A model generated the notes under the pieces. The model saw only the letters and a list, made by a program, of their open reading frames with translations, had not been told where the DNA came from and searched no databases. A stretch of 64,000 bases of DNA from UHGV virus genome UHGV-0294963. One strand, given 5' to 3'. Positions 26,082 through 42,347 of the stretch are shown here, in pieces. A program made the translations under genes and the position numbers. This stretch comes from a virus. The number at the start of each line of letters is the position of its first letter. Positions within the stretch are counted from its first letter, which is position 1.

Positions 26082-26612
26082 TTAGGATTTGTCGTATTTA
26101 TCTTCCCAGCTTATTGCCTTTCCTTGTCGAAGACTGCCCTGAACATCAATTATCCTCTGATTAGTCGAACCTCGGAATTTTAATGCAAGGTTTTTCTGTT
26201 CCAATATGAAAGGACCGTCAACCAGAACATCTATCAGTCTTAGCATCTCATCAGTATACGGCGTGGTGATACCAGAATATAATATCTGTTCGAAAGTATA
26301 CCCAGTGAAGCACCAGATGTCCTTATCTGGTACGGACTGTTTGACCGAACGCATAAGAAGAAGCACATCCTTTTGATTTTTAGGTTCGAAAGGTTCTCCA
26401 CCCAAGACTGATAATCCTGAAATTCTAGGATTTAGCATTAGGTTAATTATTTTAATTATGGTCTCGTCATCGAACTGCTCACCATAATCAAAGTCCCAAG
26501 CTACAGCATTAAAACAACCCTTGCACATCCGGGTACAACCAGAAACGAAAACGCTGACACGGCAGCCGGGTCCGTTCGCGATATCAAGGTTTTTGATTTG
26601 AGCTATGTTCAT
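26082..26612 (-). CDS. nrdG: anaerobic ribonucleoside-triphosphate reductase activating protein (radical SAM)
   Basis: CRVSVFVSGCTRMCKGCFN cluster. 176 aa. Overlaps nrdD. Confidence 0.8.
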   Translation of the reverse strand: MNIAQIKNLDIANGPGCRVSVFVSGCTRMCKGCFNAVAWDFDYGEQFDDETIIKIINLMLNPRISGLSVLGGEPFEPKNQKDVLLLMRSVKQSVPDKDIWCFTGYTFEQILYSGITTPYTDEMLRLIDVLVDGPFILEQKNLALKFRGSTNQRIIDVQGSLRQGKAISWEDKYDKS

Positions 26613-28792
26613 AGATGCTCCACCCTATCCTTTATCTCTTGAGTACGTCCTTGATTCCAGAATTGAGTACCGATATAACCACAGGTGCGACGAGCAACAG
26701 ACATCTTGGTCTGGTCTCTGTTACCACACTGCGGGCACTCCCAAAGAAGCTTACCTTCTTCTTCGATAACAGCAATCTCACCGTCATAGCCACACTCACA
26801 GCAGTAATCGCTCTTGGTATTCAACTCTGCATACATTATGTTATCATATATGAACTTGACAACTTCCAATACAGCTGGGATATTGTTCGTCATATTCGGA
26901 ACTTCAATGTATGAAATAGCACCACCAGGTGACAGTCTCTGGAATGCAGACTCAAAAGTCAGCTTGGTAAACGCATCAATCTTCTCGGTAACGTGAACAT
27001 GATAAGAATTCGTGATATAATTCTTATCTGTAATGCCTTCGATAATTCCGAAACGCTTCTGCAGTGCTTTAGCAAATTTGTATGTGGTAGATTCAAGCGG
27101 AGTACCATACACAGAATAAGCGATATTCTCAGCTGCTTTCCACTCAGCACACTTATCATTGAGACGCTGCATAACTGCAAGAGCAAAATCCTTAGCTTCG
27201 GGGTCTGTATGTGAATGACCAGTCATCGCTTTGACACATTCATACAACCCTGCATACCCAAGCGAAATTGTAGAGTAGCCGCCATAGAGTAGTTTATCGA
27301 TTTTCTCACCCTTCTTAAGCCGTGCGATTGCACCATACTGCCAGAGAATAGGAGCGACATCAGATGTAGTTCCAAGCAAACGTTCGTGACGAATACGAAG
27401 TGCTCGATGACAGAGCTCGAGCTTATCATCGAGAACACGCCAGAATTTATCAAAGTCACCTCTTGCCGTCAAACCGACTGCAGGTAGGTTAATAGTAACC
27501 ACACCTTGATTGAATCTACCGTAATATTTCGGATTACCGTCCTCGTCAACATACGGTGTGAGGAATGAACGACAACCCATACAGGGGTAGCACTGAGGAT
27601 TACCGTTCTGGTCAATCTTATACTCAAGCATTTTCTTTTCAGAAATGTAATCAGGAACCATGCGTTTAGCAGTACACTGTGCTGCCAACTCGGTAAGATA
27701 CCAGTAGGGAGTAGTTTCATTACAGTTATTTGTATCAAGAATATACAAAAGTTTCGGAAATGCTGGTGTAACCCAGACACCCTTCTCATTCTTAACACCT
27801 TGAATACGCTGACGTAAGATTTCTTCGATAACAAGAGCTAAATCATGTTGCTCCTGAAGTGTTCTGGCTTCATTCAGATAAAGACAAAGACTCAAAAATG
27901 GAGCCTGACCATTGGTAGTCATCAAGGTGATTACCTGATATTGAATTGTCTGCACGCCATCACGGATTTCCTTAGCTAAACGCTTATTAAGAATAACCTC
28001 TGCTTGTCTTTCTGAAAGCATAACACCGGCTTCGGCACACTCCTCAAAAATCTGTTTCCTAATCTGCTGTCTGCTTCTGTCGACGAATGGGGCGAGATGA
28101 GCAACCGAAATAGTCTGACCACCATACTGATTAGAAGCTACCTGTGCGATAATCTGTGTAGCGATGTTGCAAGCTGTCGAGAATGAGTGGGGAGTATCGA
28201 TACCGGTACCTGAAATAACAGTGCTGACGTCACCTCTTTCCAGCATATCTCGCAGATTAATCAGACAGCAGTTATACATAGGCTGAGCAAAATAATCAGC
28301 ATCATGGAAATGAATATCACCTATCCTGTTCGCTTCCTTAATGTCTTCAGGAAGTAATTGAGAATAAGTAATTGTCTTGGACACTTCACCTGCCATATAG
28401 TCACGTTGTACCGAATTGATTAAAGTGTTCTTGTTCGAATTTTCTTCTTTGAGAACGGCATTTTTGTTCTGAATCAGAGTCATGATATTGTCTGACATGC
28501 TGTCTGACTTGCGCACAAGAGCTCGTTCATAACGATATGTGATATACTCTTTAGCCAACTTGGGAAGGTTGTGAGCAATCAACTCCTGTTCAACAAAGTC
28601 TTGCACGTCCTCTACAGACACGATACTTGTCTGCTGTTCACAACGAAAGATTACAGCTTGGGTTATCTCGTCTATCTGAGCCTTGGTGAGCTTATTTTCT
28701 TCACTCATTTTGGCATTAGCCTTCGATATTGCGATAGAAATTTTACTACCGTCGAACCCTACTTCTGTTCCATCACGTTTGATAATGTGCAT
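26609..28792 (-). CDS. nrdD: anaerobic ribonucleoside-triphosphate reductase
   Basis: 727 aa. C-terminal zinc ribbon (CCECGYDG...CPQCGN) and glycyl-radical motif (RRTCGYIG). Confidence 0.85.
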   Translation of the reverse strand: MHIIKRDGTEVGFDGSKISIAISKANAKMSEENKLTKAQIDEITQAVIFRCEQQTSIVSVEDVQDFVEQELIAHNLPKLAKEYITYRYERALVRKSDSMSDNIMTLIQNKNAVLKEENSNKNTLINSVQRDYMAGEVSKTITYSQLLPEDIKEANRIGDIHFHDADYFAQPMYNCCLINLRDMLERGDVSTVISGTGIDTPHSFSTACNIATQIIAQVASNQYGGQTISVAHLAPFVDRSRQQIRKQIFEECAEAGVMLSERQAEVILNKRLAKEIRDGVQTIQYQVITLMTTNGQAPFLSLCLYLNEARTLQEQHDLALVIEEILRQRIQGVKNEKGVWVTPAFPKLLYILDTNNCNETTPYWYLTELAAQCTAKRMVPDYISEKKMLEYKIDQNGNPQCYPCMGCRSFLTPYVDEDGNPKYYGRFNQGVVTINLPAVGLTARGDFDKFWRVLDDKLELCHRALRIRHERLLGTTSDVAPILWQYGAIARLKKGEKIDKLLYGGYSTISLGYAGLYECVKAMTGHSHTDPEAKDFALAVMQRLNDKCAEWKAAENIAYSVYGTPLESTTYKFAKALQKRFGIIEGITDKNYITNSYHVHVTEKIDAFTKLTFESAFQRLSPGGAISYIEVPNMTNNIPAVLEVVKFIYDNIMYAELNTKSDYCCECGYDGEIAVIEEEGKLLWECPQCGNRDQTKMSVARRTCGYIGTQFWNQGRTQEIKDRVEHL

Positions 28793-28843: not shown

Positions 28844-29215
28844 TTATGTCGCGGTATCATTGTTCTGCGACCCAAGGTGAGGAGTGGTATCTTTCAGCAT
28901 TATGGTAGAAAGGTGGTATTCTATAGCACACTGGTGCTCAATTCGACATCCTTTAGAGTTCTCCCAACCAGGCACGAACACAACGACATTACAGGTGGAC
29001 ATAATCTTAATGCAGTCACCTAGGCTCTCTAAGGGATTTCTATGTTCTTCGAACGCTGCTTCATCGAATGAATCTGCTACCTCGACAGTATCTCCAACTG
29101 TTCTAAGTCCCTCATCAATCTGCTGCATTATAGCAATGACATCTTCTCTTTCACGCTTCACTTCCTCAAGCGTACGTCCTGTCATCGGCTGTGAAATAAA
29201 TACACGATGTTTCAC
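28844..29215 (-). CDS. DUF4406-like protein (nucleoside 2-deoxyribosyltransferase-like Rossmann fold)
   Basis: VFISQPMTG ... VVFVPGWENSKGCRIEHQCAIEY pattern. 123 aa. Confidence 0.4.
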   Translation of the reverse strand: MKHRVFISQPMTGRTLEEVKREREDVIAIMQQIDEGLRTVGDTVEVADSFDEAAFEEHRNPLESLGDCIKIMSTCNVVVFVPGWENSKGCRIEHQCAIEYHLSTIMLKDTTPHLGSQNNDTAT

Positions 29216-29235
29216 TTTGTTCTACCTCCATTTTC

Positions 29236-30198
29236 TTATTCTGTCGATATTGTCCAACTTGGTTTGTCAACGAAGTAGTTAATCAAGTCTGCTACGTCTT
29301 CTGAAGTTTCCCAATCCCAGTGCTTAGTAGCAGCATAGATATCTGGAAGATTTCGAGACTCATCATCAGTAAGGTCGAAGCCACGACCATACGTCCAATA
29401 CGCATTGGACAGAGGTATATAGGACTGAATGGTTACACGAGGGTCTTCGAACAAGTCCACCTCGCGGCTACAGATTGTTCTATAAAGTGAGAAGAAGTAG
29501 ACATGGGATGCTCCAGCAGACAGAATATGCTCGATAACTGCGTTTGCCGTTCTTCCGCTAGAAATGAGGTCATCAATCACAATCACTTTTTTACCTGTGA
29601 TGTCGATATCTCTATCTTGAACAACAGTTACCAGGTTGTCGTCCTGAGTGTTCGTAGTTTGGTCATAATGCTGAGCAGCGTAAACAACCGCAGAAGTTAT
29701 GCCCAGCCTATCAGCCAGCATTTTACCTGCAACTGCAACCGATGCGTAGATACAAGTACCGTCGTCTGGAGCTTGAACCATCGTCTTGAATGTGCTTTCA
29801 AGAAGCACAGCTTGCGCAGAAGTGATATACGGCGTATCAGATTTCGCCCTAGGAAACGACCATGAACCTGCATCAATGAGGTCAAGAATTGCATTGAGAA
29901 TTTTACCACAGTTTTCTGGACGAATACACTTACCGTTCTCTCGTTCGAACACACTGACTTCCAGGTCGATGCATCCTGGTGTTGCAGAGACGAAAGCGTG
30001 GTCAGGATTTTGCTGGTCGGTACAGAAAATATCTACGTCAGGTGCGGTTTGCAAAAAATAGACCGGTACCGGCTTATCTGGATACTCACGGCTGGTATCA
30101 GGAACCAGTACGCAGCATTTAGCTTCCTCATTCTGCCAATAATATTTCGACCTCGATATGGTCTGTGTACCGAAGTCTGATGGATGAAAATCAAACAT
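29236..30198 (-). CDS. phosphoribosyltransferase (type I PRTase domain) with a roughly 180 aa N-terminal extension
   Basis: KKVIVIDDLISSGRTANAV is the PRPP-binding motif of type I PRTases. Confidence 0.55.
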   Translation of the reverse strand: MFDFHPSDFGTQTISRSKYYWQNEEAKCCVLVPDTSREYPDKPVPVYFLQTAPDVDIFCTDQQNPDHAFVSATPGCIDLEVSVFERENGKCIRPENCGKILNAILDLIDAGSWSFPRAKSDTPYITSAQAVLLESTFKTMVQAPDDGTCIYASVAVAGKMLADRLGITSAVVYAAQHYDQTTNTQDDNLVTVVQDRDIDITGKKVIVIDDLISSGRTANAVIEHILSAGASHVYFFSLYRTICSREVDLFEDPRVTIQSYIPLSNAYWTYGRGFDLTDDESRNLPDIYAATKHWDWETSEDVADLINYFVDKPSWTISTE

Positions 30199-30230
30199 AG
30201 AAGTAACCTCCTAAATAGTATTATATCAAC

Positions 30231-30263
30231 ATTATAACATACTTTACCTACAGAAACGAAGTT
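30231..30263 (-). promoter_or_regulatory. promoter: AACTTCG - 20 nt - TGTTATAAT
   Basis: AACTTCGTTTCTGTAGGTAAAGTATGTTATAAT on the minus strand, upstream of the PRTase gene. Confidence 0.45.
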
Positions 30264-30355
30264 TCATAATAAACGGTACTACTTAATTGCTGTACCGTTG
30301 CGTATATAATTACACAACCAGTAACCGTGCATTTAAGCAGTACCGGAAAAAAATA

Positions 30356-30937
30356 TTAGCCGTTGCGAACCAGACTATAGAACTCGTTACGGAGGTCTGA
30401 GTCGGTTTTGAATACTCCTCTCAGAGTTGCTGTTCGAGTCTTGGTACCTGGCTTCTTAACTCCGCGAGCTGTCATACAAGAATGCTCTCCCTCGATTACG
30501 ACAATAATGTCTTCTGTATCGAGTACTTTTTCGAGAACATCAGCAATGTCTGCTCCAATACGTTCCTGAAGCTGCAGTCGCTTACCTACCATATCAGCAA
30601 TACGAGCTACCTTGCTCAATCCGATTACCTTACCCTTCGGGAGATAGCCGACATGAACCTTCATATTATACATCAAAGCGATATGATGCTCGCAGTAGCT
30701 GAAGATTGGAATATCAGCGATAGTGACAAGGTCACCGGTTGCACCTTCCTCGAAGCACTTATTGAACTTCTTTGCGATTTCATCGTTGGTATAGCACATA
30801 CCCTCGAATACTTCTGCGTACATCTTAGCTACACGCTTAGGTGTGTCCTTGAGTCCTTCTCTTTCAGGGTCATCACCGAGGGCAACCAGTATATCTTTAA
30901 TTGCTCTCTTGATGGCTTCTGTATCTATATTTTTCAT
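30356..30937 (-). CDS. folE: GTP cyclohydrolase I
   Basis: CEHH motif, GLSK. 193 aa. Confidence 0.85.
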
Positions 30938-30940
30938 CTG

Positions 30941-31675
30941 TTATACACCTCTCATGTCTGGGTCCCAAATCAGCTTATGAAGCTGAAGCTGCACCTTAAC
31001 ATACACCAACTTATTCTCAAGCAGATATGCTACGATATCAGCAGGGTCAATTTTACCCCATACAGGGCTGACATAAATTTGAGCATCAATCTCAGGATTA
31101 TCTTCCAGCACCTGCTTCATCTGGTCAAGGTCTTCCTGACTGCCTACAACAAACTTCAACACGTCAGTAGTCTCAAGCAGTTCCAGATTAGACTTGAGCA
31201 TCTTATCAGACTCACCTGAACTGATAGATTTCCAATCCATGGTAAAGAAGTAGTCCATAGGACCCTTCTTTGGCTCTGGCTGACTATCGATGATTTTACC
31301 AAGGTCGATTGAGCCGTTGGTTTCGATGTTTACCCAGTAGCCACGCTCTCTAAGCTCGAATATGAGTTTACCTACATCTTTATGGATGAGCGGCTCACCG
31401 CCTGTAAGCGTAATGCATCTACAGGGGTCGAAACGTTCGATGCTGCAAAGAATTCTGTCGAGGTCCATGCTGTCAAAACCTATAGTATTATCACGGTCAG
31501 CAAAATCCGCCTTACACGCATACTGCGAATCGCAGTAGGTACAGTCTAGATTGCAACCGAAAAGACGAATAAAGATTGTAGGTGCACCGGTACGAGCACC
31601 TTCACCGTCTATACTATAGAAAATTTCAGATACAGGCAGTTTCATCAAAGGACACCTCCGTCGATTGTGCAACAA
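30941..31675 (-). CDS. queE: 7-carboxy-7-deazaguanine synthase (radical SAM)
   Basis: CNLDCTYCDSQY cluster. N-terminal similarity to Bacillus QueE. Confidence 0.85.
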   Translation of the reverse strand: MLHNRRRCPLMKLPVSEIFYSIDGEGARTGAPTIFIRLFGCNLDCTYCDSQYACKADFADRDNTIGFDSMDLDRILCSIERFDPCRCITLTGGEPLIHKDVGKLIFELRERGYWVNIETNGSIDLGKIIDSQPEPKKGPMDYFFTMDWKSISSGESDKMLKSNLELLETTDVLKFVVGSQEDLDQMKQVLEDNPEIDAQIYVSPVWGKIDPADIVAYLLENKLVYVKVQLQLHKLIWDPDMRGV

Positions 31676-32040
31676 GCAACATTACCTTCAGATTCTTGAA
31701 CAGTTACTTTATAGCACTCACTATCAGATCCGTCAGCTTTGTTCACCTCACGCAGCTCATCATTCACTCGGTCAAGTATCCAAGCCGCCATATTCTCAGC
31801 GGTCGGATTTACCGAAACTACATCATTGATGTACATATGGTCAAGTCTGCTATGGATTGCTGTATTGATTTTCTTAAAATCAACAACCATACCGACATGA
31901 TTTAGCACATTCGCCCGACAGTATACAGTAACTATCCAATTATGTCCATGCAAATTTCTACACCTAGATTCATAATCGAGAGATAGCTGGTGAGCACCAG
32001 CTATCTCCATTCTTTTAGAAATAGAGTATTTGTAATCCAT
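31645..32040 (-). CDS. queD: 6-carboxy-5,6,7,8-tetrahydropterin synthase
   Basis: CRNLHGHNW (Cx5HGH) motif. 131 aa. Confidence 0.8.
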   Translation of the reverse strand: MDYKYSISKRMEIAGAHQLSLDYESRCRNLHGHNWIVTVYCRANVLNHVGMVVDFKKINTAIHSRLDHMYINDVVSVNPTAENMAAWILDRVNDELREVNKADGSDSECYKVTVQESEGNVACCTIDGGVL

Positions 32041-32041
32041 C

Positions 32042-32749
32042 TTATACCTCCTGATTAATCGCAGGGTCTGCTACACCGTTAGCTTCGAATGCTTTCGCTC
32101 TGTCGATGCAGGTACCGCACTTACCACAGGGTCCGGCTTCACCACCATTATAACAGCTCCAGGTATATTCATAAGGAACTCTAAGTTCAAGTCCCTTCTT
32201 TACAACTTCAGCCTTGCTAGAACCCGCAAAGGGAGCGACCAGTGAAACTTTGTCATAAGTTCCGATACCGATTGCATCATTCATTGAGTCGATAAATTCC
32301 TGAGAGCAGTCTGCGTACGCATTACCAGCCGCGTCATCTGCGTGAGCACCGATATACACGAGCACTTCCTCATCAGGATAGAGAGAAGCTGCCAAAGAAG
32401 CTGCTGTCGAAAGGAACAGACCGTTTCTGAACGGAACGTAGGTCGCCACCATACCGTTAGCACTCTTGTCAATCTGGTCAGCATAATCTCCCTCAGGTAC
32501 ATCATCAGTAGAGTGCTGAAGCAGCGGACAGTTGCTATGCTTAAAGATAACAGAAAGGTCGAGTTCAATGTGCTTTACGTTGTAATGTTCGGCGACCGTA
32601 GCGGCGGCTTCAAGCTCACGCTTGTGCTTCTGACCATAGTACATAGATACAGACGTCACATTAGCAGCACCATGTTCATATACGGCAAGACCTAGACAAG
32701 TAGTGCTATCAACACCACCAGAGCTTAATACAATAGCTTTAGGCATCAT
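32042..32749 (-). CDS. queC: 7-cyano-7-deazaguanine synthase
   Basis: [12 protein letters not shown]-loop-like motif and a C-terminal zinc site (CGKCGTC). Confidence 0.85.
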
Positions 32750-33248
32750 AAGTCACCTTCCTTTCTGCTGCTGACTGCATAACAGCCAGTCTTCTTGCAG
32801 TTTCAAATTCCTTGTACTCAGGATGTTCAGGGTGAACATATGTGGAGAACGGGAAGATTGCGATACCGCCTCTAGGTGCAAAGATACCACGTACCTCAAG
32901 GTACTTAGGTTCCATCAGCTTAACAAGGTCTTTCATGATAATATTGACACAATCTTCATGGAAGTCCCCGTGGTTACGGAAGCTGAACAGATAGAGTTTG
33001 AGTGACTTGGACTCGACCATTTTCTCGTTCGGGATATAACTGATGATAATCTTTGCGAGGTCAGGCTGCCCAGTCTTAGGGCAGAGTGACGTGAACTCGT
33101 AAGCATCAAAGGTTACGACATAATCATTGTCCGGATGCTTGTTTACGAATGTTTCGAGTACGCTGGGGTCGTAGTCGTACTTATACTTAGTATTCTGATT
33201 ACCCAGCAGGCTAACGCCCTGAAGCTCTTCAGCATTTCTACCTGTCAT
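32739..33248 (-). CDS. queF: NADPH-dependent 7-cyano-7-deazaguanine reductase (type I QueF)
   Basis: [13 protein letters not shown] and [32 protein letters not shown] are nearly identical to Bacillus-type QueF. Confidence 0.85.
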
Positions 33249-33250
33249 GA

Positions 33251-34486
33251 TTACGCCCCCTCACCTTTGAATTCGCCGTCTTCGAGATAATCCGTCCAAC
33301 TATGTCTCTTGATGAGCATACCATCACCGAAGCTCATGAATCGATACCTCTTATCTACTGCATGCTTATATGCTGTCATGATTTCATCATAACCAGCAAC
33401 AACAGATACAAGCATCATAAGGGTCGTCTCTGGTGCATGGAAGTTGGTGATAAGACCGTCGATACAGTTCACACGGTCAGCTGTTTCAGAACCGGGATAT
33501 ATGAAGATGCTGGTGTCCGTAGAAAAATCTGTAGGATTCTCCCAAACCTCAGGAGGAATAGAAGCGAGGGTGCGGAGTGATGTTGTACCAACCGCTACGA
33601 CATTGCGTCCTTCAGCGTGAGCCTGCTTGATGTCCTTGATTACGTTTACAGGACAGAAGCAATGCTCAGTGTGCATAGCATGATTTCTGAGGTCCTTGAC
33701 AACAACAGGCTTGAAAGTACCAAGACCAACGTCGAGTGTAACCTCCCTCACCTTTACACCCTTGTCCTTGAGTGCTTGAAGTAGTTCAGGAGTGAAGTGA
33801 AGTCCTGCTGTCGGTGCTGCGCAAGAAGTTCTTTCCTTAGCGTAGACAGTATTGTACATTTCAGAAATGTAAGCCTCTGAATGACCTCTACCCTGAATAT
33901 AAGGAGGAAGAGGAGTCTCACCTATCTTGTCGAGAACATCCCAACCGTTAGAATTAGCGAAATCAAGGAATACTTCTCCTTCATCATCGCAGCTCTTGAT
34001 AGTGAGTTCTGCATCGTCAGCACCATTAAGAATAAGAACAGTACCTTCTTCCTGAGGCTTGCTAATCATCGCCTTCCAGGTAGATCCGCCCTGATACTGA
34101 ACAAACAGAATCTCGACAGTATTATCTTCATCCGGCTGTGTACCTTTCTTATAAGCAAACGCTCTTGCTGGAATAACCTTCGTGTTATTGAGAACAAGCA
34201 CGTCACCAGCGTTGAAATAGTCACAGATGTCTGTGAAGTGCTTGTCATCGAGTGCTACAGCTACTCCATTCCTGTCTGCCTCAACGGTTGTGTCAACGAT
34301 AAGACATCTAGCACTCGCCCTATCCGGAAGCGGTTCCTGAGCGATAAGTTCCTGTGGAAGGTCGTAGCGATAATGAGCAGAAGAATACTGCTCCTCAGCA
34401 GGGGCTGTATCAAGTCCCTTTGCTGTTACGGTTTTAGATGTACTAAAAATATCAGGCACACCAGTTTCCATTTTTTCGTTGTTCAT
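33251..34486 (-). CDS. queA: S-adenosylmethionine:tRNA ribosyltransferase-isomerase homologue
   Basis: [69 protein letters not shown] and [13 protein letters not shown] are all QueA hallmarks. It has a 35 aa N-terminal extension. Confidence 0.85.
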
Positions 34487-34507
34487 AGTTAATCGTCCTT
34501 TCGTGTA

Positions 34508-35410
34508 TTATGATTCTATGCGTTTTCTTACCTGGGTTGAAATCATATAAGATACGGGAGACAACAGCGCTTCTACTGTAATCTGAAATGCAATGCCGAG
34601 CAAGAAATTGCCAGCTATACTCTTTGCGTCCATACCCCAGCAGTCCATACCTAACGCGGAGCAGAAGCTCGGGATTGAGAATGGAATCATTACCAGGAGT
34701 GTGAACAGACCCAAGTCAGCAGTCTTACCTAAGATACTCGAACCTATTGAGCGGAGCGAGTAGCTTGAAAAACCTTCACCGGGTTTCTTTTTCTTAATGA
34801 AAGCAAATAGCTTATCATTTAAGAAATCACCTACAGCGTAAATCAGGATACCAACGATAGTAACATAGATACCTCCACCGTAGATGAAATCAAATGCGGA
34901 TTCATTCACTTCTGCATACTCAGGCACGGGAATACCGGTAAATGCTTTCGCGATTAGAGCTGCAACGACAGCAAAAATAGCTGAAGTGTTGCCTGATAAT
35001 CTCGAGGCTTTATAACCGAACACTTCTGAGAATACGTCAGAGACGATATATGTTGCGATAAAAAATAGAGAATCGCCTGTTGCAGTTGCCATGACAGTAG
35101 GTCCTGGTATAAACAAGACATCTACAGCGTCAAGTGCGCACAGCACAATTCCCGTCAGACTGAGAAGAGCACCGAAAGCATACCCAACACCTTTGTGCTT
35201 CTTTTCACCAAGCTTGCCTGCTAACAGCATACCAAGAACGGTAAGTATCAGCATACCCAGAATTGAAAAGATACTGGTTTCTTTTGCTTCCAGAATCTTC
35301 ACCATCATCGGTACACACAAAGCATAGCTGGCGACATTGATAGCCATAAGCACAGCAAATAATGCAGGGGCTTTACTCCACGACTCTTCTGGTTTACTTT
35401 TCAGTTTCAT
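34508..35410 (-). CDS. polytopic membrane protein; candidate 7-deazaguanine precursor transporter (YhhQ/VUT-like?)
   Basis: About seven predicted transmembrane helices. Assignment is by genomic context only. Confidence 0.3.
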   Translation of the reverse strand: MKLKSKPEESWSKAPALFAVLMAINVASYALCVPMMVKILEAKETSIFSILGMLILTVLGMLLAGKLGEKKHKGVGYAFGALLSLTGIVLCALDAVDVLFIPGPTVMATATGDSLFFIATYIVSDVFSEVFGYKASRLSGNTSAIFAVVAALIAKAFTGIPVPEYAEVNESAFDFIYGGGIYVTIVGILIYAVGDFLNDKLFAFIKKKKPGEGFSSYSLRSIGSSILGKTADLGLFTLLVMIPFSIPSFCSALGMDCWGMDAKSIAGNFLLGIAFQITVEALLSPVSYMISTQVRKRIES

Positions 35411-40289: not shown

Positions 40290-40670
40290 TTAACCTCCTT
40301 CACTGTCAGAACCAGAACCTATACCGTTGGTTTCCTCCTGAGAAATCACCATGGTGTACATATCAGAAGTAACGGTACTGTTCATAGCGACCTGAAAGCC
40401 GATGTAATACTGCTCACCTTCGGTTCTACCGAGATTCTTACCGTCGATATAATTCTTGGTAATGGTATATCCCCTCGCTTCTACTTTAGCTTTCTCAGCA
40501 TCACTAATTCCGTTCGGGAAAGTACAATACTGCTGTCCGCCACCGCATCTCTTCTCTACCTCAGCGAGGACCTCGGTTGCTAGAATATTCGGCATAGAAG
40601 GCTGAAAGTATGCCTGAACCTGAGCATCATACTCAGTATTCGAAGGATGATTAGTAGTTCTGATATTCAT
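40290..40670 (-). CDS. hypothetical protein (126 aa)
   Basis: ORF tightly packed after the large gene. Confidence 0.4.
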   Translation of the reverse strand: MNIRTTNHPSNTEYDAQVQAYFQPSMPNILATEVLAEVEKRCGGGQQYCTFPNGISDAEKAKVEARGYTITKNYIDGKNLGRTEGEQYYIGFQVAMNSTVTSDMYTMVISQEETNGIGSGSDSEGG

Positions 40671-40681
40671 TTTATATCACC

Positions 40682-41743
40682 TCACTGAAAATCTGTGATA
40701 GGTTTGAGCTCCTTATTGAACTCCTTGCTGAGATTGCGTGCGTCCTTGGACACTGCCAGCTTAGACTTTACCAAGATGCAGTCTGCGTCGTCGATTTCAT
40801 CGACAATCTGAATCTTGCCTGCGATGGCGAGCTCATCAACATCAGCTGCATCCACCTTCTTGATGTCCACATAGCACTTCAGAGGCTGCGTAACTGCCGC
40901 TTCCTCGTCTGTGTCATTGATGTCCTCAGTCTCAGCAGTTTCAGCTGCCGATGACTGCTCATCTGCAATCACATCGTCTGCTTCATTTACAATAGGCTGC
41001 TTCGTAGCTTCATCAGACTCACCAGCAACGGGCTGCTCGATTTTCTCCGTCTCAGGCTCAATCGGTGTATCCTGGTCCTCATCAAGCACAAGCTGGTCAC
41101 AGAAACTGCTGGTACACTTATAGAACATAGGAAGGTCAGGATAAATCTGAATACGCTTGAGCGGATTGTTACACTTAGGGCAGAACTGAGGAATCGGAGC
41201 AACAACAGGTGCTGTGTTCATCGGCTGAAGTTCACCATTCCAAACCTTTGCGGTACAGCCAGGCTGAAAGTAAGCAATCAACTTCATGTCAATTACTTCG
41301 AACTCGCCTTTATCTGTAGTGCAGACCAGAGTTAAAGTCTTATCTGGTGCCATCACATACTTTACTGAATTGATGTGTGCCAACTCAGGAACCTTGAACT
41401 CGTTTCCACTTGGAAGACTAATCCAATAAGCATCATACATCGAGTACTGATTCTTGAGGGTAATGAGCTGATTGCCCTGACCACTCTCGTTCTCAAAATA
41501 AGGAACTGTCTTGAAGCCGAGAGAGGTTAGGAGAGCGAGCTGCTCAGTCACGGTAAACTTTCTTGCAGAAGAATACAAGGAATATGCCAGGAAGTCATTC
41601 TTAGACACATATCCCGTAATCTCGAAAGGAAGACTATAATTCTTTATCTGATTCGGTGTGTGTTCAACTGGACTGCCAAGCAGAGCTCCTGTTTCATTGT
41701 AAGACACGGTCGCTTCAGGCAGATTAAGTTTAAGTCTAATCAT
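40682..41743 (-). CDS. hypothetical protein with a zinc ribbon and an acidic C-terminus
   Basis: CPKCNN...CTSSFC. D/E-rich tail. Overlaps the upstream sigma factor gene by 8 nt. Confidence 0.4.
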   Translation of the reverse strand: MIRLKLNLPEATVSYNETGALLGSPVEHTPNQIKNYSLPFEITGYVSKNDFLAYSLYSSARKFTVTEQLALLTSLGFKTVPYFENESGQGNQLITLKNQYSMYDAYWISLPSGNEFKVPELAHINSVKYVMAPDKTLTLVCTTDKGEFEVIDMKLIAYFQPGCTAKVWNGELQPMNTAPVVAPIPQFCPKCNNPLKRIQIYPDLPMFYKCTSSFCDQLVLDEDQDTPIEPETEKIEQPVAGESDEATKQPIVNEADDVIADEQSSAAETAETEDINDTDEEAAVTQPLKCYVDIKKVDAADVDELAIAGKIQIVDEIDDADCILVKSKLAVSKDARNLSKEFNKELKPITDFQ

Positions 41744-42347
41744 CTGATAACACTCCTTTACATTTTCTTAGGTACCATTGTACGCACGGCACCGATAATT
41801 TGGTTAAACCAGATTTATATAAATCAGTAACTTCTTTCGCCGGCATGTGAAGTTCCTTTGCGATTTCATTCACGCTCCATGGCGGTTCATCAGAAGTTCT
41901 GTTTATAACGTGAAGAACATTGATTTCTTTTGGAGTAAGGAGCTTCTCGACCACTTTCGAGATGTCCATCTGTTTCTGGTCGAATTCATATTTATCTTCT
42001 ATCTGTTCTTCCATTGGAATATCAGCGTCCTCGCATTCAAATTCCGAGAACGTCATTTCAGGATTTACCAGCTTATTCATCTGGTTCCTTATATAAGGAA
42101 AAGCATATGTGCTCAAGACTGTATATGTATCAGCGTCGAATCTGTCTATAGCTATCATCAATCCCATAACTCCAGCAGATACGAGCTCTTCGCTGTCGCT
42201 CTCACTCGGAAAGCGACTTGCGAAGTACATCTGATAGCATCTATGCACGAGACCCATATTGTTCAAAACCAACTTGTTTCTTACCTCAGGGTCTCTGGTT
42301 CTAGCATATTCCTTGAGCAATTCCTGATTTTGCTGTCCCCTGCTCAT
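41736..42347 (-). CDS. sigma-70 family sigma factor (second phage-encoded copy)
   Basis: LSTYAFPYIRNQM (region 2.x) and VNEIAKELHMPAKEVTDLYKSGLTKL (region 4 helix-turn-helix). Confidence 0.55.
   Translation of the reverse strand: MSRGQQNQELLKEYARTRDPEVRNKLVLNNMGLVHRCYQMYFASRFPSESDSEELVSAGVMGLMIAIDRFDADTYTVLSTYAFPYIRNQMNKLVNPEMTFSEFECEDADIPMEEQIEDKYEFDQKQMDISKVVEKLLTPKEINVLHVINRTSDEPPWSVNEIAKELHMPAKEVTDLYKSGLTKLSVPCVQWYLRKCKGVLSDD

Follow-up and report, generated by a model that had tools for sequence, protein, structure and literature searches.

Streptococcus phage Dp-1 carries DpdA1 together with FolE, QueD, QueE, QueC and QueF, and its DNA contains dPreQ1 at 3389 per 10^6 nt (PMC6884629). 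In that survey the viruses analysed yielded no homologue of QueA, QueG or QueH, and dQ was undetected (Hutinet 2019, PMC6884629), which agrees with a preliminary description of the locus reported here, in which known phage dpdA modules were held to lack queA. The same study proposed that DpdA-less phages carrying preQ0 genes may raise Q levels in aid of translation. Phage dPreQ1 is further tailored by DpdM (methyl) and DpdN (formyl) to mdPreQ1 and fdPreQ1 (Cui, Hutinet et al. 2023, PMC10516641), and QueA is absent from the text of that paper. Outside phages, the phosphoribosyltransferases ToyH (toyocamycin) and TubE (tubercidin) join a 7-deazaguanine to PRPP (PMC6112128). Our search of the literature from 2023 onward found no paper joining DpdA, QueA and phage. 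To our knowledge, the sole known substrate of QueA is preQ1 at tRNA position 34.

A preQ1 block with QueA and a DpdA-type transglycosylase

We analyzed a 64-kb stretch (the window) of the ~160-kb phage genome UHGV-0294963. The block consists of nine open reading frames, all on the minus strand, and adjoins nrdDG as the preliminary description had stated. Features are listed below with scores against cut-offs where available.

34508-35410, minus strand: membrane protein of the Vut_1/YhhQ queuosine-precursor transporter family, first gene of the block (Pfam Vut_1 68.9 vs 27.2, 8.4e-19)
33251-34486, minus strand: QueA, SAM ribosyltransferase-isomerase, 411 aa (NF001140 366 vs 324; TIGR00113 337 vs 267)
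32739-33248, minus strand: QueF, unimodular NADPH-dependent preQ0 reductase (TIGR03139 163 vs 87, 1.8e-48)
32042-32749, minus strand: QueC, preQ0 synthase (PF06508 2.7e-55; TIGR00364 162 vs 150)
31645-32040, minus strand: QueD, 6-carboxytetrahydropterin synthase (PF01242 7.8e-29; TIGR03367 89.6 vs 89.25)
30941-31675, minus strand: QueE, radical-SAM 7-carboxy-7-deazaguanine synthase, clostridial type (TIGR03963 1.8e-66; Radical_SAM 1.2e-12)
30356-30937, minus strand: FolE, GTP cyclohydrolase I (PF01227 1.7e-66; NF006826 245 vs 162)
29236-30198, minus strand: two-domain type I phosphoribosyltransferase, PRT (PF00156 45.7 vs 26.3)
28844-29215, minus strand: DUF4406 protein, nucleoside 2-deoxyribosyltransferase-like (PF14359 32.5 vs 22 bits, 1.2e-7; phrog_355 5.3e-15)
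26609-28792, minus strand: NrdD, anaerobic ribonucleoside-triphosphate reductase, adjoining the block (PF13597 5.5e-187)
26082-26612, minus strand: NrdG, NrdD activase, adjoining the block (Fer4_12 4.9e-48)
59557-60570, minus strand: DpdA-type DNA-guanine transglycosylase, in the replication module

Genes of the block overlap or are separated by 0-51 nt, except for 157 nt between FolE and PRT. Profile searches of the ORFs upheld all gene assignments made in the preliminary description, including queA and DpdA. Two scores fell under their equivalog cut-offs, namely YhhQ by TIGR00697 (36.9 bits, NCBIfam cut-off 50.95) and QueE by TIGR03963 (224 bits, cut-off 260). The true start of QueE is uncertain because the listed TTG start overlaps QueD. 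QueF carries the catalytic Cys motif and the NADPH motif ESKSLKLY and is therefore genuine, indicating that preQ1 is made. The sequences support a predicted pathway from GTP to the free base preQ1 through FolE, QueD, QueE, QueC and QueF, and likewise the assignment of YhhQ to a family that imports preQ0/preQ1.

Sequence analysis also supports the prediction that the product of 59557-60570 is the DNA-guanine transglycosylase DpdA. Its nearest structural neighbor is the solved DNA preQ0 insertase, and Dp-1 provides the nearest characterized relative of both DpdA and the clamp loader. The two phages share the DpdA subfamily (38% identity over 98% of the length), a related replication module, the full route from GTP to preQ1 including a true QueF, and a likely Gram-positive Bacillota host. 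In contrast, Dp-1 has no QueA, PRT match or adjacent NrdDG, its genome is 56 kb compared with ~160 kb, and its end product is dPreQ1. All lineages seen contained DpdA, and its catalytic-type motifs were invariant. GATC occurred 4 times compared with ~260 expected, and GGCC and GCGC were also depleted. These deficits argue that most G is unprotected, suggesting partial, motif-specific modification; total G replacement is less likely because GATC avoidance would then lack selection.

QueA, its companion proteins and their linkage

Phage QueA was found in >100 protein clusters, on contigs of up to ~162 kb, and persists to ~50% identity across three architectures. Its dN/dS was 0.04-0.06 with near-saturated synonymous sites, and NrdD and FolE had a similar dN/dS. 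The QueA module is not a single occurrence, nor is it decaying. Structure matches were PDB 1yy3 at 1.7e-74, with 1yy3 and 1vky at E ~1e-73. Like the bacterial enzyme that converts preQ1-tRNA to epoxyqueuosine-tRNA, the phage protein is a full-length QueA scoring over the equivalog cut-offs, and it keeps 74 positions that are invariant in bacterial QueA. It differs in a conserved N-terminal extension of ~36 aa with the motif DDIFS...D..P and in two fixed core-motif changes, G to T220 and H to D252 (G and H in 17 bacterial QueAs). A conserved core with phage-specific features is the pattern expected if the chemistry is kept while the substrate or partner has changed. Moreover, the phage copy lies beside, or is co-inherited with, a DNA transglycosylase, whereas the TGT, QueG and QueH of the bacterial pathway did not accompany it in the sequence examined. 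Among cellular QueAs, those of Lachnospiraceae are nearest (45-47% identity), suggesting that Q is used by the likely host group.

The C-terminal domain of PRT has the HGPRT fold and the PRPP motif VIVIDDLISSGRT, and its N-terminal domain (~115 aa) gave no match to anything known. The family comprises 11 clusters only; no member was found in the GenBank phages searched, QueA-less Dp-1-like phages included, and the family appears confined to these QueA-bearing phages. In a low-identity alignment, all members have Ser at the position of the Asp that contacts purine N7 in HGPRTs (D137 in the human enzyme), which would fit a base whose position 7 is a carbon. The Lys that reads the 6-oxo group in HGPRTs aligns, again at low identity, to an invariant Thr, making a guanine-like substrate itself uncertain. 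The DUF4406 protein has a Glu within GWENSKGCRIEHQ that may be the catalytic nucleophile of the NDT fold. Its homologues are common in phages without deazaguanine genes, such as small gut siphophages and, as MazG fusions, mycobacteriophages. ToyH and TubE (PMC6112128) are likewise type I enzymes encoded beside FolE, QueD and QueE(-QueC), a likeness of gene context. They differ from the phage PRT, which has its own N-terminal domain and 11-cluster family and is encoded by a DpdA-bearing virus rather than an actinomycete secondary-metabolite cluster.

Neighborhood comparison bore out the earlier view that QueA, PRT and DUF4406 belong to the module and are not chance neighbors, as diverged lineages carry them again, in varied arrangements, together with DpdA, YhhQ and the preQ1 genes. 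The order in the window clade is YhhQ-QueA-QueF, followed by the other genes, with 24 kb between QueA and DpdA. Locus L027 has DpdA-QueA-YhhQ within the replication module, and L042 has DpdA-QueF-QueC-QueD-QueE-FolE-DUF4406-YhhQ with QueA (L011) on the same 41.5-kb contig. In L009 and L011, QueA lies away from both DpdA and the preQ1 genes. YhhQ adjoins QueA in L002 and L004-L008 and is also kept in L027 and L042, and NrdD adjoins the module in L001, L002 and L004-L008 but not in L003. DUF4406 lies within the module in two further arrangements, in the FolE/YhhQ interval of L042 and just upstream of QueA in L003. It is not beside the module in L001 and L004, nor is PRT in L003; the presence of DUF4406, PRT, YhhQ and NrdDG beside the module differs among close relatives.

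All seven IMG/VR QueA contigs of >100 kb encode DpdA as well. Contig sizes of 117176, 110556, 41483 and 150909 were each common to two or more of the hit lists for QueA, PRT and DpdA, with 117176 in every list, suggesting shared contigs. Identities step down in similar jumps, from 80-99% to ~50% for QueA and through 83-90%, 57-69% and 50-54% for DpdA, which fits long co-inheritance. The companions of QueA were PRT, an NDT-like protein, a T7 gp1.7-like nucleotide kinase, an HD hydrolase and NrdDG, with no translation gene among them.

A candidate elaborated base in phage DNA

Judged from sequence, the known DNA preQ1 system has gained QueA and a new PRT in a large group of phages of ~160 kb, all uncultivated. 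Our preferred reading, with a probability of roughly 0.5, is that DpdA would place preQ1 in DNA and QueA would then make an epoxyqueuosine-type base. At the same even odds, the block would be the biosynthetic arm of a DNA 7-deazaguanine system of the Dp-1/DpdA1 kind with one tailoring step added. DpdA would swap a subset of phage-DNA guanines for preQ1, and QueA with SAM would build an epoxy-dihydroxycyclopentyl group onto the 7-aminomethyl nitrogen, giving a 2'-deoxy-epoxyqueuosine-type DNA base that may block host nucleases. Neither QueG nor QueH was seen within the 64-kb window of the ~160-kb genome, and the pathway may accordingly end at the epoxide form. PRT and DUF4406 might handle bases or nucleotides around the pathway, perhaps recycling the guanine freed by DpdA and the adenine freed by QueA; alternatively, PRT would make a preQ1 mononucleotide for QueA and the DUF4406 protein would then free the elaborated base for DpdA. 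As with DpdM and DpdN, a DpdA and preQ1 core would be joined by one enzyme decorating the 7-aminomethyl nitrogen, and in both cases tailoring may take place either on DNA or on the free base. However, QueA, recruited from tRNA queuosine biosynthesis, would attach an epoxy-diol ring of five carbons where DpdM and DpdN attach a single-carbon group. If this reading is true, phage DNA carries a queuosine-type base, a type never reported in DNA.

This reading is favored because QueF is genuine and DpdA is nearest to a DNA preQ0 insertase, because the relative Dp-1 has dPreQ1 in its DNA, and because the contextual linkage of QueA and DpdA spans deep divergence. The strong purifying selection on a QueA with phage-specific features, its nucleotide and DNA companion genes and the lack of PRT in GenBank phages argue in the same direction. 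It is weakened by the conserved catalytic core of QueA, whose known substrate is tRNA, by the distance from DpdA in the window clade and the separation in L009 and L011, and by DUF4406 and PRT, which are missing beside the module in some loci, with DUF4406 common elsewhere.

The main alternative, a role in tRNA, would leave nothing past dPreQ1 in DNA: DpdA would modify DNA with preQ0/preQ1 as in Dp-1, host TGT would put extra preQ1 in host or phage tRNA, phage QueA would relieve the next bottleneck, and host QueG/QueH would finish Q. We consider this rather unlikely, although QueA, which retains its 74 universally invariant residues, exceeds the curated cut-offs of the tRNA enzyme, four Rfam-confirmed tRNA genes in the window reflect investment in translation, the Lachnospiraceae-like QueA suggests Q-using hosts, and the missing QueG/QueH are no obstacle if host-supplied. 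A Q boost has also been proposed for DpdA-less phages with preQ0 genes (Hutinet 2019). However, bacterial-type TGT was found neither in the window nor in any phage locus retrieved, and a TGT-alignment scan of IMG/VR matched 0 QueA contigs, a weak negative with narrow patterns. None of the four confirmed tRNAs has a GUN anticodon; Rfam did not recognize the ARAGORN call of tRNA-Tyr(GTA) as a tRNA, even with a threshold of E<=10. Hosts with TGT normally encode their own QueA, so that a phage queA would be redundant there, yet it is constrained like NrdD. QueA is also directly beside DpdA in the L027 replication module and co-occurs with a private PRT family and nucleotide enzymes foreign to tRNA modification.

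Action at the nucleotide level, raised in the preliminary description, now seems improbable as a wholesale route. PRT would join preQ1/preQ0 to PRPP like ToyH/TubE, QueA may act on the nucleotide, kinases would give the triphosphate, NrdD would reduce it, and the polymerase would use it in place of dGTP, with DpdA secondary. The purine-PRT fold of PRT with Ser, by that low-identity alignment, at the N7-contact position, the location of PRT between FolE and NrdD in the window, the gp1.7-like kinase and HD phosphohydrolase flanking QueA in relatives, and the existence of 7-deazaguanine-accepting enzymes (TubE uses PRPP and CDG; PMC6112128) are consistent with it. However, DpdA retention in every lineage seen is hard to explain if a polymerase route sufficed, and the depletion of GATC, GGCC and GCGC argues that most G is unprotected. 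The window yielded no dGTP-depleting enzyme, PRT is not beside the module in L003, and the invariant Thr, as placed by a low-identity alignment, makes a guanine-like substrate uncertain. Finally, the system may comprise FolE, QueD, QueE, QueC, QueF, YhhQ and DpdA, ending at dPreQ1, with PRT, DUF4406 and NrdDG as ordinary salvage genes alongside and QueA a captured host gene of little or no role. The breadth of DUF4406 homologues and the variable gene presence among close relatives fit this account, as do promoter and terminator scans of the block, neither of which exceeded shuffled controls. It is very improbable in view of the selection on QueA and its retention in >100 clusters and three architectures, the repeated position of DUF4406 inside the module in L042 and L003, and a PRT family essentially private to QueA-bearing phages.

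The 7-deazaguanine gene block and its setting

The genes between positions 26082 and 35410 of the window all lie on the minus strand and are tightly packed, as judged from ORF coordinates. Pfam and NCBIfam searches assigned them as follows.

Genes of the module in order of transcription, from first to ninth and beyond
34508-35410, minus strand, Vut_1/YhhQ queuosine-precursor transporter (Pfam Vut_1)
33251-34486, minus strand, QueA (Pfam/NCBIfam, 366 bits against a cut-off of 324)
32739-33248, minus strand, QueF (Pfam/NCBIfam)
32042-32749, minus strand, QueC (Pfam/NCBIfam)
31645-32040, minus strand, QueD (Pfam/NCBIfam)
30941-31675, minus strand, QueE (Pfam/NCBIfam)
30356-30937, minus strand, FolE (Pfam/NCBIfam)
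29236-30198, minus strand, type I phosphoribosyltransferase, PRT (Pfam)
28844-29215, minus strand, DUF4406 protein (Pfam)
after the DUF4406 gene, minus strand, NrdD and then NrdG (Pfam)

The genes and positions named in the preliminary description agreed with the Pfam and NCBIfam results in every particular, and its polytopic membrane protein could be given a name, that of a YhhQ-family transporter. This protein scored 68.9 bits with Pfam Vut_1, above the cut-off of 27.2, and 36.9 with NCBIfam TIGR00697, below the cut-off of 50.95; about 100 residues at its N-terminus lie outside the Vut_1 domain. All five enzymes of preQ1 biosynthesis (FolE, QueD, QueE, QueC, and QueF) were present with family-level scores. 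FolE, QueD, QueC, and QueF exceeded their NCBIfam cut-offs, and QueE, at 224 against an equivalog cut-off of 260, fell short of it, although it is plainly a radical-SAM enzyme of the QueE type. In QueF, the catalytic Cys motif is present together with the NADPH motif ESKSLKLY; these motifs distinguish true QueF from QueF-like amidinotransferases (QueF-L), and the pathway therefore ends in preQ1. From sequence, the phage is predicted to make preQ1 and to encode a transporter of the preQ0/preQ1 family, as well as a DNA transglycosylase from the family with members that insert preQ0 or preQ1 into phage DNA.

Two relatives carried enlarged pathway genes. The QueF ORF of one, from IMG/VR (L002:11239-12741), is 500 aa long, with an intein-like insert exactly at the catalytic Cys (SLC/VTGDTLID...VVIHN/CPKTGQPD), and the His-rich middle region of the insert may hold a homing endonuclease. 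In another (L042, 6024-7295), the FolE ORF of 423 aa matched both Pfam HNH and GTP_cyclohydroI.

The contents of the window are those of a phage, with baseplate and tail genes, an endolysin, two sigma-factor-like proteins, tRNAs, and a replication module of primase, DnaB, SF1 helicase, clamp loader, RecU, clamp, and SSB. Searched by megablast, GenBank phages gave no match to the module, and that collection contains no isolate of this phage group. No preQ1 or other riboswitch was detected in the module at E<=1, and promoter and terminator scans of it gave no operon signals above those of shuffled controls.

QueA and its association with DpdA across phage lineages

The assignment of queA held, with 366.3 bits for NF001140 (cut-off 324) and 337.2 for TIGR00113 (cut-off 267.45). 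The PF02547 match (8.1e-105) covers residues 38-392, and the protein is full-length and above the curated equivalog score; a QueA-like family in PHROGs, phrog_28663, is labelled 'unknown function'. More than 100 relatives (90% clusters) were found at 80-99% identity on contigs of up to ~162 kb, followed by a sharp drop to ~50%. The same module is present on eight IMG/VR contigs of 77-166 kb, and dN/dS of QueA against six of these eight was 0.04-0.06, with synonymous sites near saturation. By this measure, QueA is constrained like NrdD and FolE and more strongly than QueD, QueE, and PRT. The relatives at ~50% identity likewise lie in phage context, with SbcCD, a sigma factor, and tail genes. 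QueA is strongly constrained and an ancient possession of a large group of phages.

Phage QueAs differ from bacterial QueAs in a few features. An N-terminal extension of ~36 residues before the canonical start, with the motif DDIFS...D..P, is conserved in all phage QueAs, whose diversity equals that of the bacterial sample (minimum 46% identity). When 14 phage and 17 bacterial sequences were compared, 74 columns were invariant in both, and two columns invariant in the 17 bacterial sequences were fixed otherwise in the phages (G to T220, and H to D252 in LHVGxGTF). Retained chemistry with a few fixed changes and a new appendage would be expected after a change of substrate or partner, and proves nothing. 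Matches at ~40% identity in GenBank 'phage' records and at the IMG/VR loci L012-L026 were rejected as phage QueAs: the extension is missing, and most are in fragmentary unannotated records or at or within ~3 kb of contig ends, so they are probably contamination or host genes from the edges of prophages. The nearest cellular QueAs, at 45-47% identity, belong to genomes of Lachnospiraceae from the rumen and thereby hint at a setting in the rumen or gut.

The case for linking QueA with DpdA, the putative DNA transglycosylase encoded at 59557-60570, is supported most strongly by gene context across lineages. In the clade of the window, the order is YhhQ-QueA-QueF-QueC-QueD-QueE-FolE-PRT-DUF4406-NrdDG with DpdA 24 kb away, and DpdA was also present on all seven of the IMG/VR QueA contigs longer than 100 kb (7/7). 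A 110-kb contig (L027) has the order DpdA-QueA-YhhQ-SSB-clamp-RecU-PRT-clamp loader, DpdA and QueA being directly adjacent within the replication module; identity to the window is ~50% for DpdA, QueA, and YhhQ and 35% for PRT, and no preQ1 synthesis genes were found within 10 kb. A 41.5-kb contig (loci L042 and L011) carries DpdA-QueF-QueC-QueD-QueE-FolE-DUF4406-YhhQ within its replication module, with PRT and QueA further along. DpdA and the preQ0/preQ1 synthesis genes thus occur together in one phage genome, both in the window and on shared IMG/VR contigs, and in L042 they are direct neighbours. The recurrence of contig sizes across match lists indicates that QueA, PRT, and DpdA share contigs. 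Across diverged arrangements (the window clade, L027, and L042/L011), QueA is genetically tied to the DNA transglycosylase. That the genes form merely a loose neighbourhood is very improbable.

At L009, one locus of the ~50% lineage, the neighbours of QueA are a T7 gp1.7-like nucleotide kinase (phrog_236, 8e-26) on one side and an HD phosphohydrolase on the other. The DUF3310/T7 gp1.7-like kinase and HD metal-dependent phosphohydrolase genes that flank ~50% QueAs were located at L009:9268-9975, L009:11182-11817, and L011:11933-12553. This flanking hints at possible nucleotide handling around QueA.

DpdA, the phosphoribosyltransferase, and the DUF4406 protein

The DpdA ORF matched PHROG 887 (1e-47) and, over 98% of its length, shared 38% identity with the protein annotated as a transglycosylase in Streptococcus phage Dp-1. 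The protein is modelled as a TGT-type TIM-barrel fold, nearer to DpdA than to tRNA TGTs. The assignment made in the preliminary description thus stood on PHROG 887, on homology to Dp-1, and on the fold, but not on the other searches: Pfam TGT PF01702 gave no match to the ORF at E<=1e-3, and neither phmmer nor a 24-sequence profile recovered a solved TGT or DpdA from the PDB. Structure prediction was needed because this sequence-profile link to solved structures failed. Two Asp residues, D56 in DSGAFS and D217 in DSTTW, are invariant; DSGAFS resembles the DSGGFQ of bacterial TGTs, a resemblance of motifs from which catalytic equivalence may be proposed. By family membership, DpdA putatively inserts a 7-deazaguanine base into DNA, an activity that experiments have demonstrated for DpdA of phage 9g and of phage CAjan (PMC6884629). 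Dp-1 DNA contains 3389 dPreQ1 per 10^6 nt, with 1.7% of G modified (PMC6884629). The nearest isolates of the clamp loader are Dp-1, MS1, Clostridium phage phiCTP1, and Bacillus phage Flasso, and the relatives of DpdA and the clamp loader place the replication module, DpdA included, with those of the Bacillota-phage type. In other phages, DpdA homologues (41% identity) occur on their own.

Directly upstream of DpdA is a 536-aa ORF (60564-62174) without a Pfam or PHROG match. An ORF with 35% identity occupies the same position in L027, and ORFs of similar size are upstream of DpdA in L042 and L043. The GC skew switches sign at ~62-64 kb of the window; past that position, the relative L038 has its genes on the other strand.

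PRT has the HGPRT fold and the PRPP-binding motif. Its best NCBIfam HGPRT model scored 39.7 bits against a cut-off of 181. In a pairwise alignment with the HPRT 3o7m, which is uncertain at this low identity, the Asp of DiiDsG is replaced by Ser and the Lys of LLDK by the invariant Thr241; we take the Asp of the HGPRT motif to contact purine N7 and the Lys to read O6. Because of these low equivalog scores and the Ser and Thr at the Asp and Lys positions, PRT was rejected as a standard HGPRT. Searched exhaustively with a profile, 1.84 billion representatives yielded only 11 clusters at E<1e-30, the next matches (~1e-7) being ordinary proteins of HGPRT size, and no PRT was found in GenBank phages. 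The family looks private to QueA-bearing phages, judging from these matches. A second, shorter PRT paralogue is encoded at L027:16274-17194, ~5 kb downstream of the first, with 31% identity to the window PRT over the C-terminal 210 residues.

The DUF4406 protein scored 32.5 bits with PF14359 (cut-off 22) and matched phrog_355 (5.3e-15), and appears to be nucleoside 2-deoxyribosyltransferase (NDT)-like. The Glu in GWENSKGCRIEHQ is a candidate for the catalytic nucleophile. Homologues are common in unrelated small phages. Even so, the gene recurs inside the module in a total of three arrangements, those of the window, of L042, and of L003 (just upstream of QueA); it does not adjoin the module in L001 and L004.

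Proposed DNA modification and alternative readings

The reading that we favour, at a probability of about 0.5, is that the phage carries a QueA-dependent DNA base installed through DpdA. QueA would put the SAM-derived epoxy-dihydroxycyclopentyl group on the aminomethyl nitrogen, giving an epoxyqueuosine-type deoxynucleoside. The epoxide may be final because QueG and QueH were not seen; neither they nor a TGT were found in the window and the fetched loci (10-kb flanks; genomes of ~160 kb). The substrate of QueA would be either dPreQ1 already within DNA or a mononucleotide produced by PRT, in which case the DUF4406 protein could release the base for DpdA; alternatively, PRT might salvage the guanine set free by DpdA or the adenine set free by QueA. 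Product and QueA substrate are wholly inferred; for the substrate, the surrounding genes point towards DNA or nucleotide metabolism. It is rather unlikely that the four proteins work in concert as an assembly line for a queuosine-family DNA base at the base or nucleotide level. In such a scheme, the private PRT would turn preQ1 into a mononucleotide, QueA with its N-terminal extension and two core substitutions would build the epoxy-cyclopentanediol on that mononucleotide or on DNA-embedded dPreQ1, the NDT-like DUF4406 protein would free or transfer the elaborated base, and DpdA would install it at specific motifs.

Restriction-site frequencies bear on the extent of modification. GATC occurs 4 times in the window against ~260 expected (maximal-order Markov model, z about -20), and GGCC (9 against 49 expected) and GCGC (34 against 79) are also depleted. 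This depletion indicates strong selection against GATC-type restriction, so that at least these G positions are probably unprotected by modification, and a partial, motif-specific modification as in Dp-1 fits better than masking of every G. A route through the nucleotide pool, by way of PRT, kinases, and NrdD, is quite unlikely: avoidance of GATC would not persist with every G masked, GGCC and GCGC are avoided as well, and DpdA is kept throughout.

The substrate of QueA in tRNA modification is preQ1 at position 34, and a tRNA role for the phage enzyme is doubtful, though conceivable. A bacterial-type TGT is absent from the window and from every fetched phage locus, QueA would be redundant in a host with TGT, and it is accompanied by DNA and nucleotide genes. 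Scanning IMG/VR with narrow peptide patterns from a TGT alignment gave a weak negative. Nor was a GUN tRNA confirmed among the window tRNAs. The ARAGORN call of a tRNA-Tyr(GTA) at 4665-4762 (minus strand) was rejected as a Q substrate, being without Rfam support even at E<=10; it is 98 nt long with a good T-arm, its fold is no better than those of shuffles, and it is possibly the remnant of a tRNA or a non-canonical one. Four tRNAs nearby (Met, Leu-CAA, Pro-UGG, and Leu-UAG; 3140-7671) were confirmed.

The working scheme of the favoured, DpdA-installed base is like that of the Dp-1/DpdA1 dPreQ1 systems, and its logic resembles that of the DpdM/DpdN systems, which methylate or formylate dPreQ1 (PMC10516641); unlike either, QueA, a private PRT, and an NDT-like protein are recruited here. 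Of the eight 7-deazaguanine derivatives known from phage DNA (PMC10516641), none lies beyond preQ1 on the queuosine branch. The preliminary description had stated that phage modules of this kind are typically without queA, in agreement with Hutinet et al. 2019, who found no QueA, QueG, or QueH homologues in the viruses analysed and did not detect dQ (PMC6884629). In the literature searched, 'deoxyqueuosine' occurred only in that paper and in one chemistry review, and nothing from 2023 onward combined DpdA, QueA, and phage. The module predicts a specific, testable new DNA base. If QueA acts on DNA, a tRNA-modification enzyme has been retargeted to DNA, and a bulky, chemically reactive epoxide base joins the known DNA hypermodifications; new enzymes (the QueA variant, PRT, and DpdA) would become available for site-specific DNA labelling. 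Were the assembly line real, a queuosine-type base would be documented in DNA for the first time, and this QueA would be the first with a substrate other than tRNA.

Among the tRNAs of the window are three candidates of counter-defence or toxin type (111-548, 2026-2934, and 5856-6320): a NADAR domain protein, a 302-aa ORF that is PemK/MazF-like at its N-terminus, and a Tad2-like protein (anti-Thoeris sponge family). The two sigma-70 region-2 proteins (1440-2078 and 41736-42347) are probably phage late-transcription factors; the latter is first in a conserved series of unknown ORFs (40290-41743), and L003, L009, and L011 show synteny with this block.
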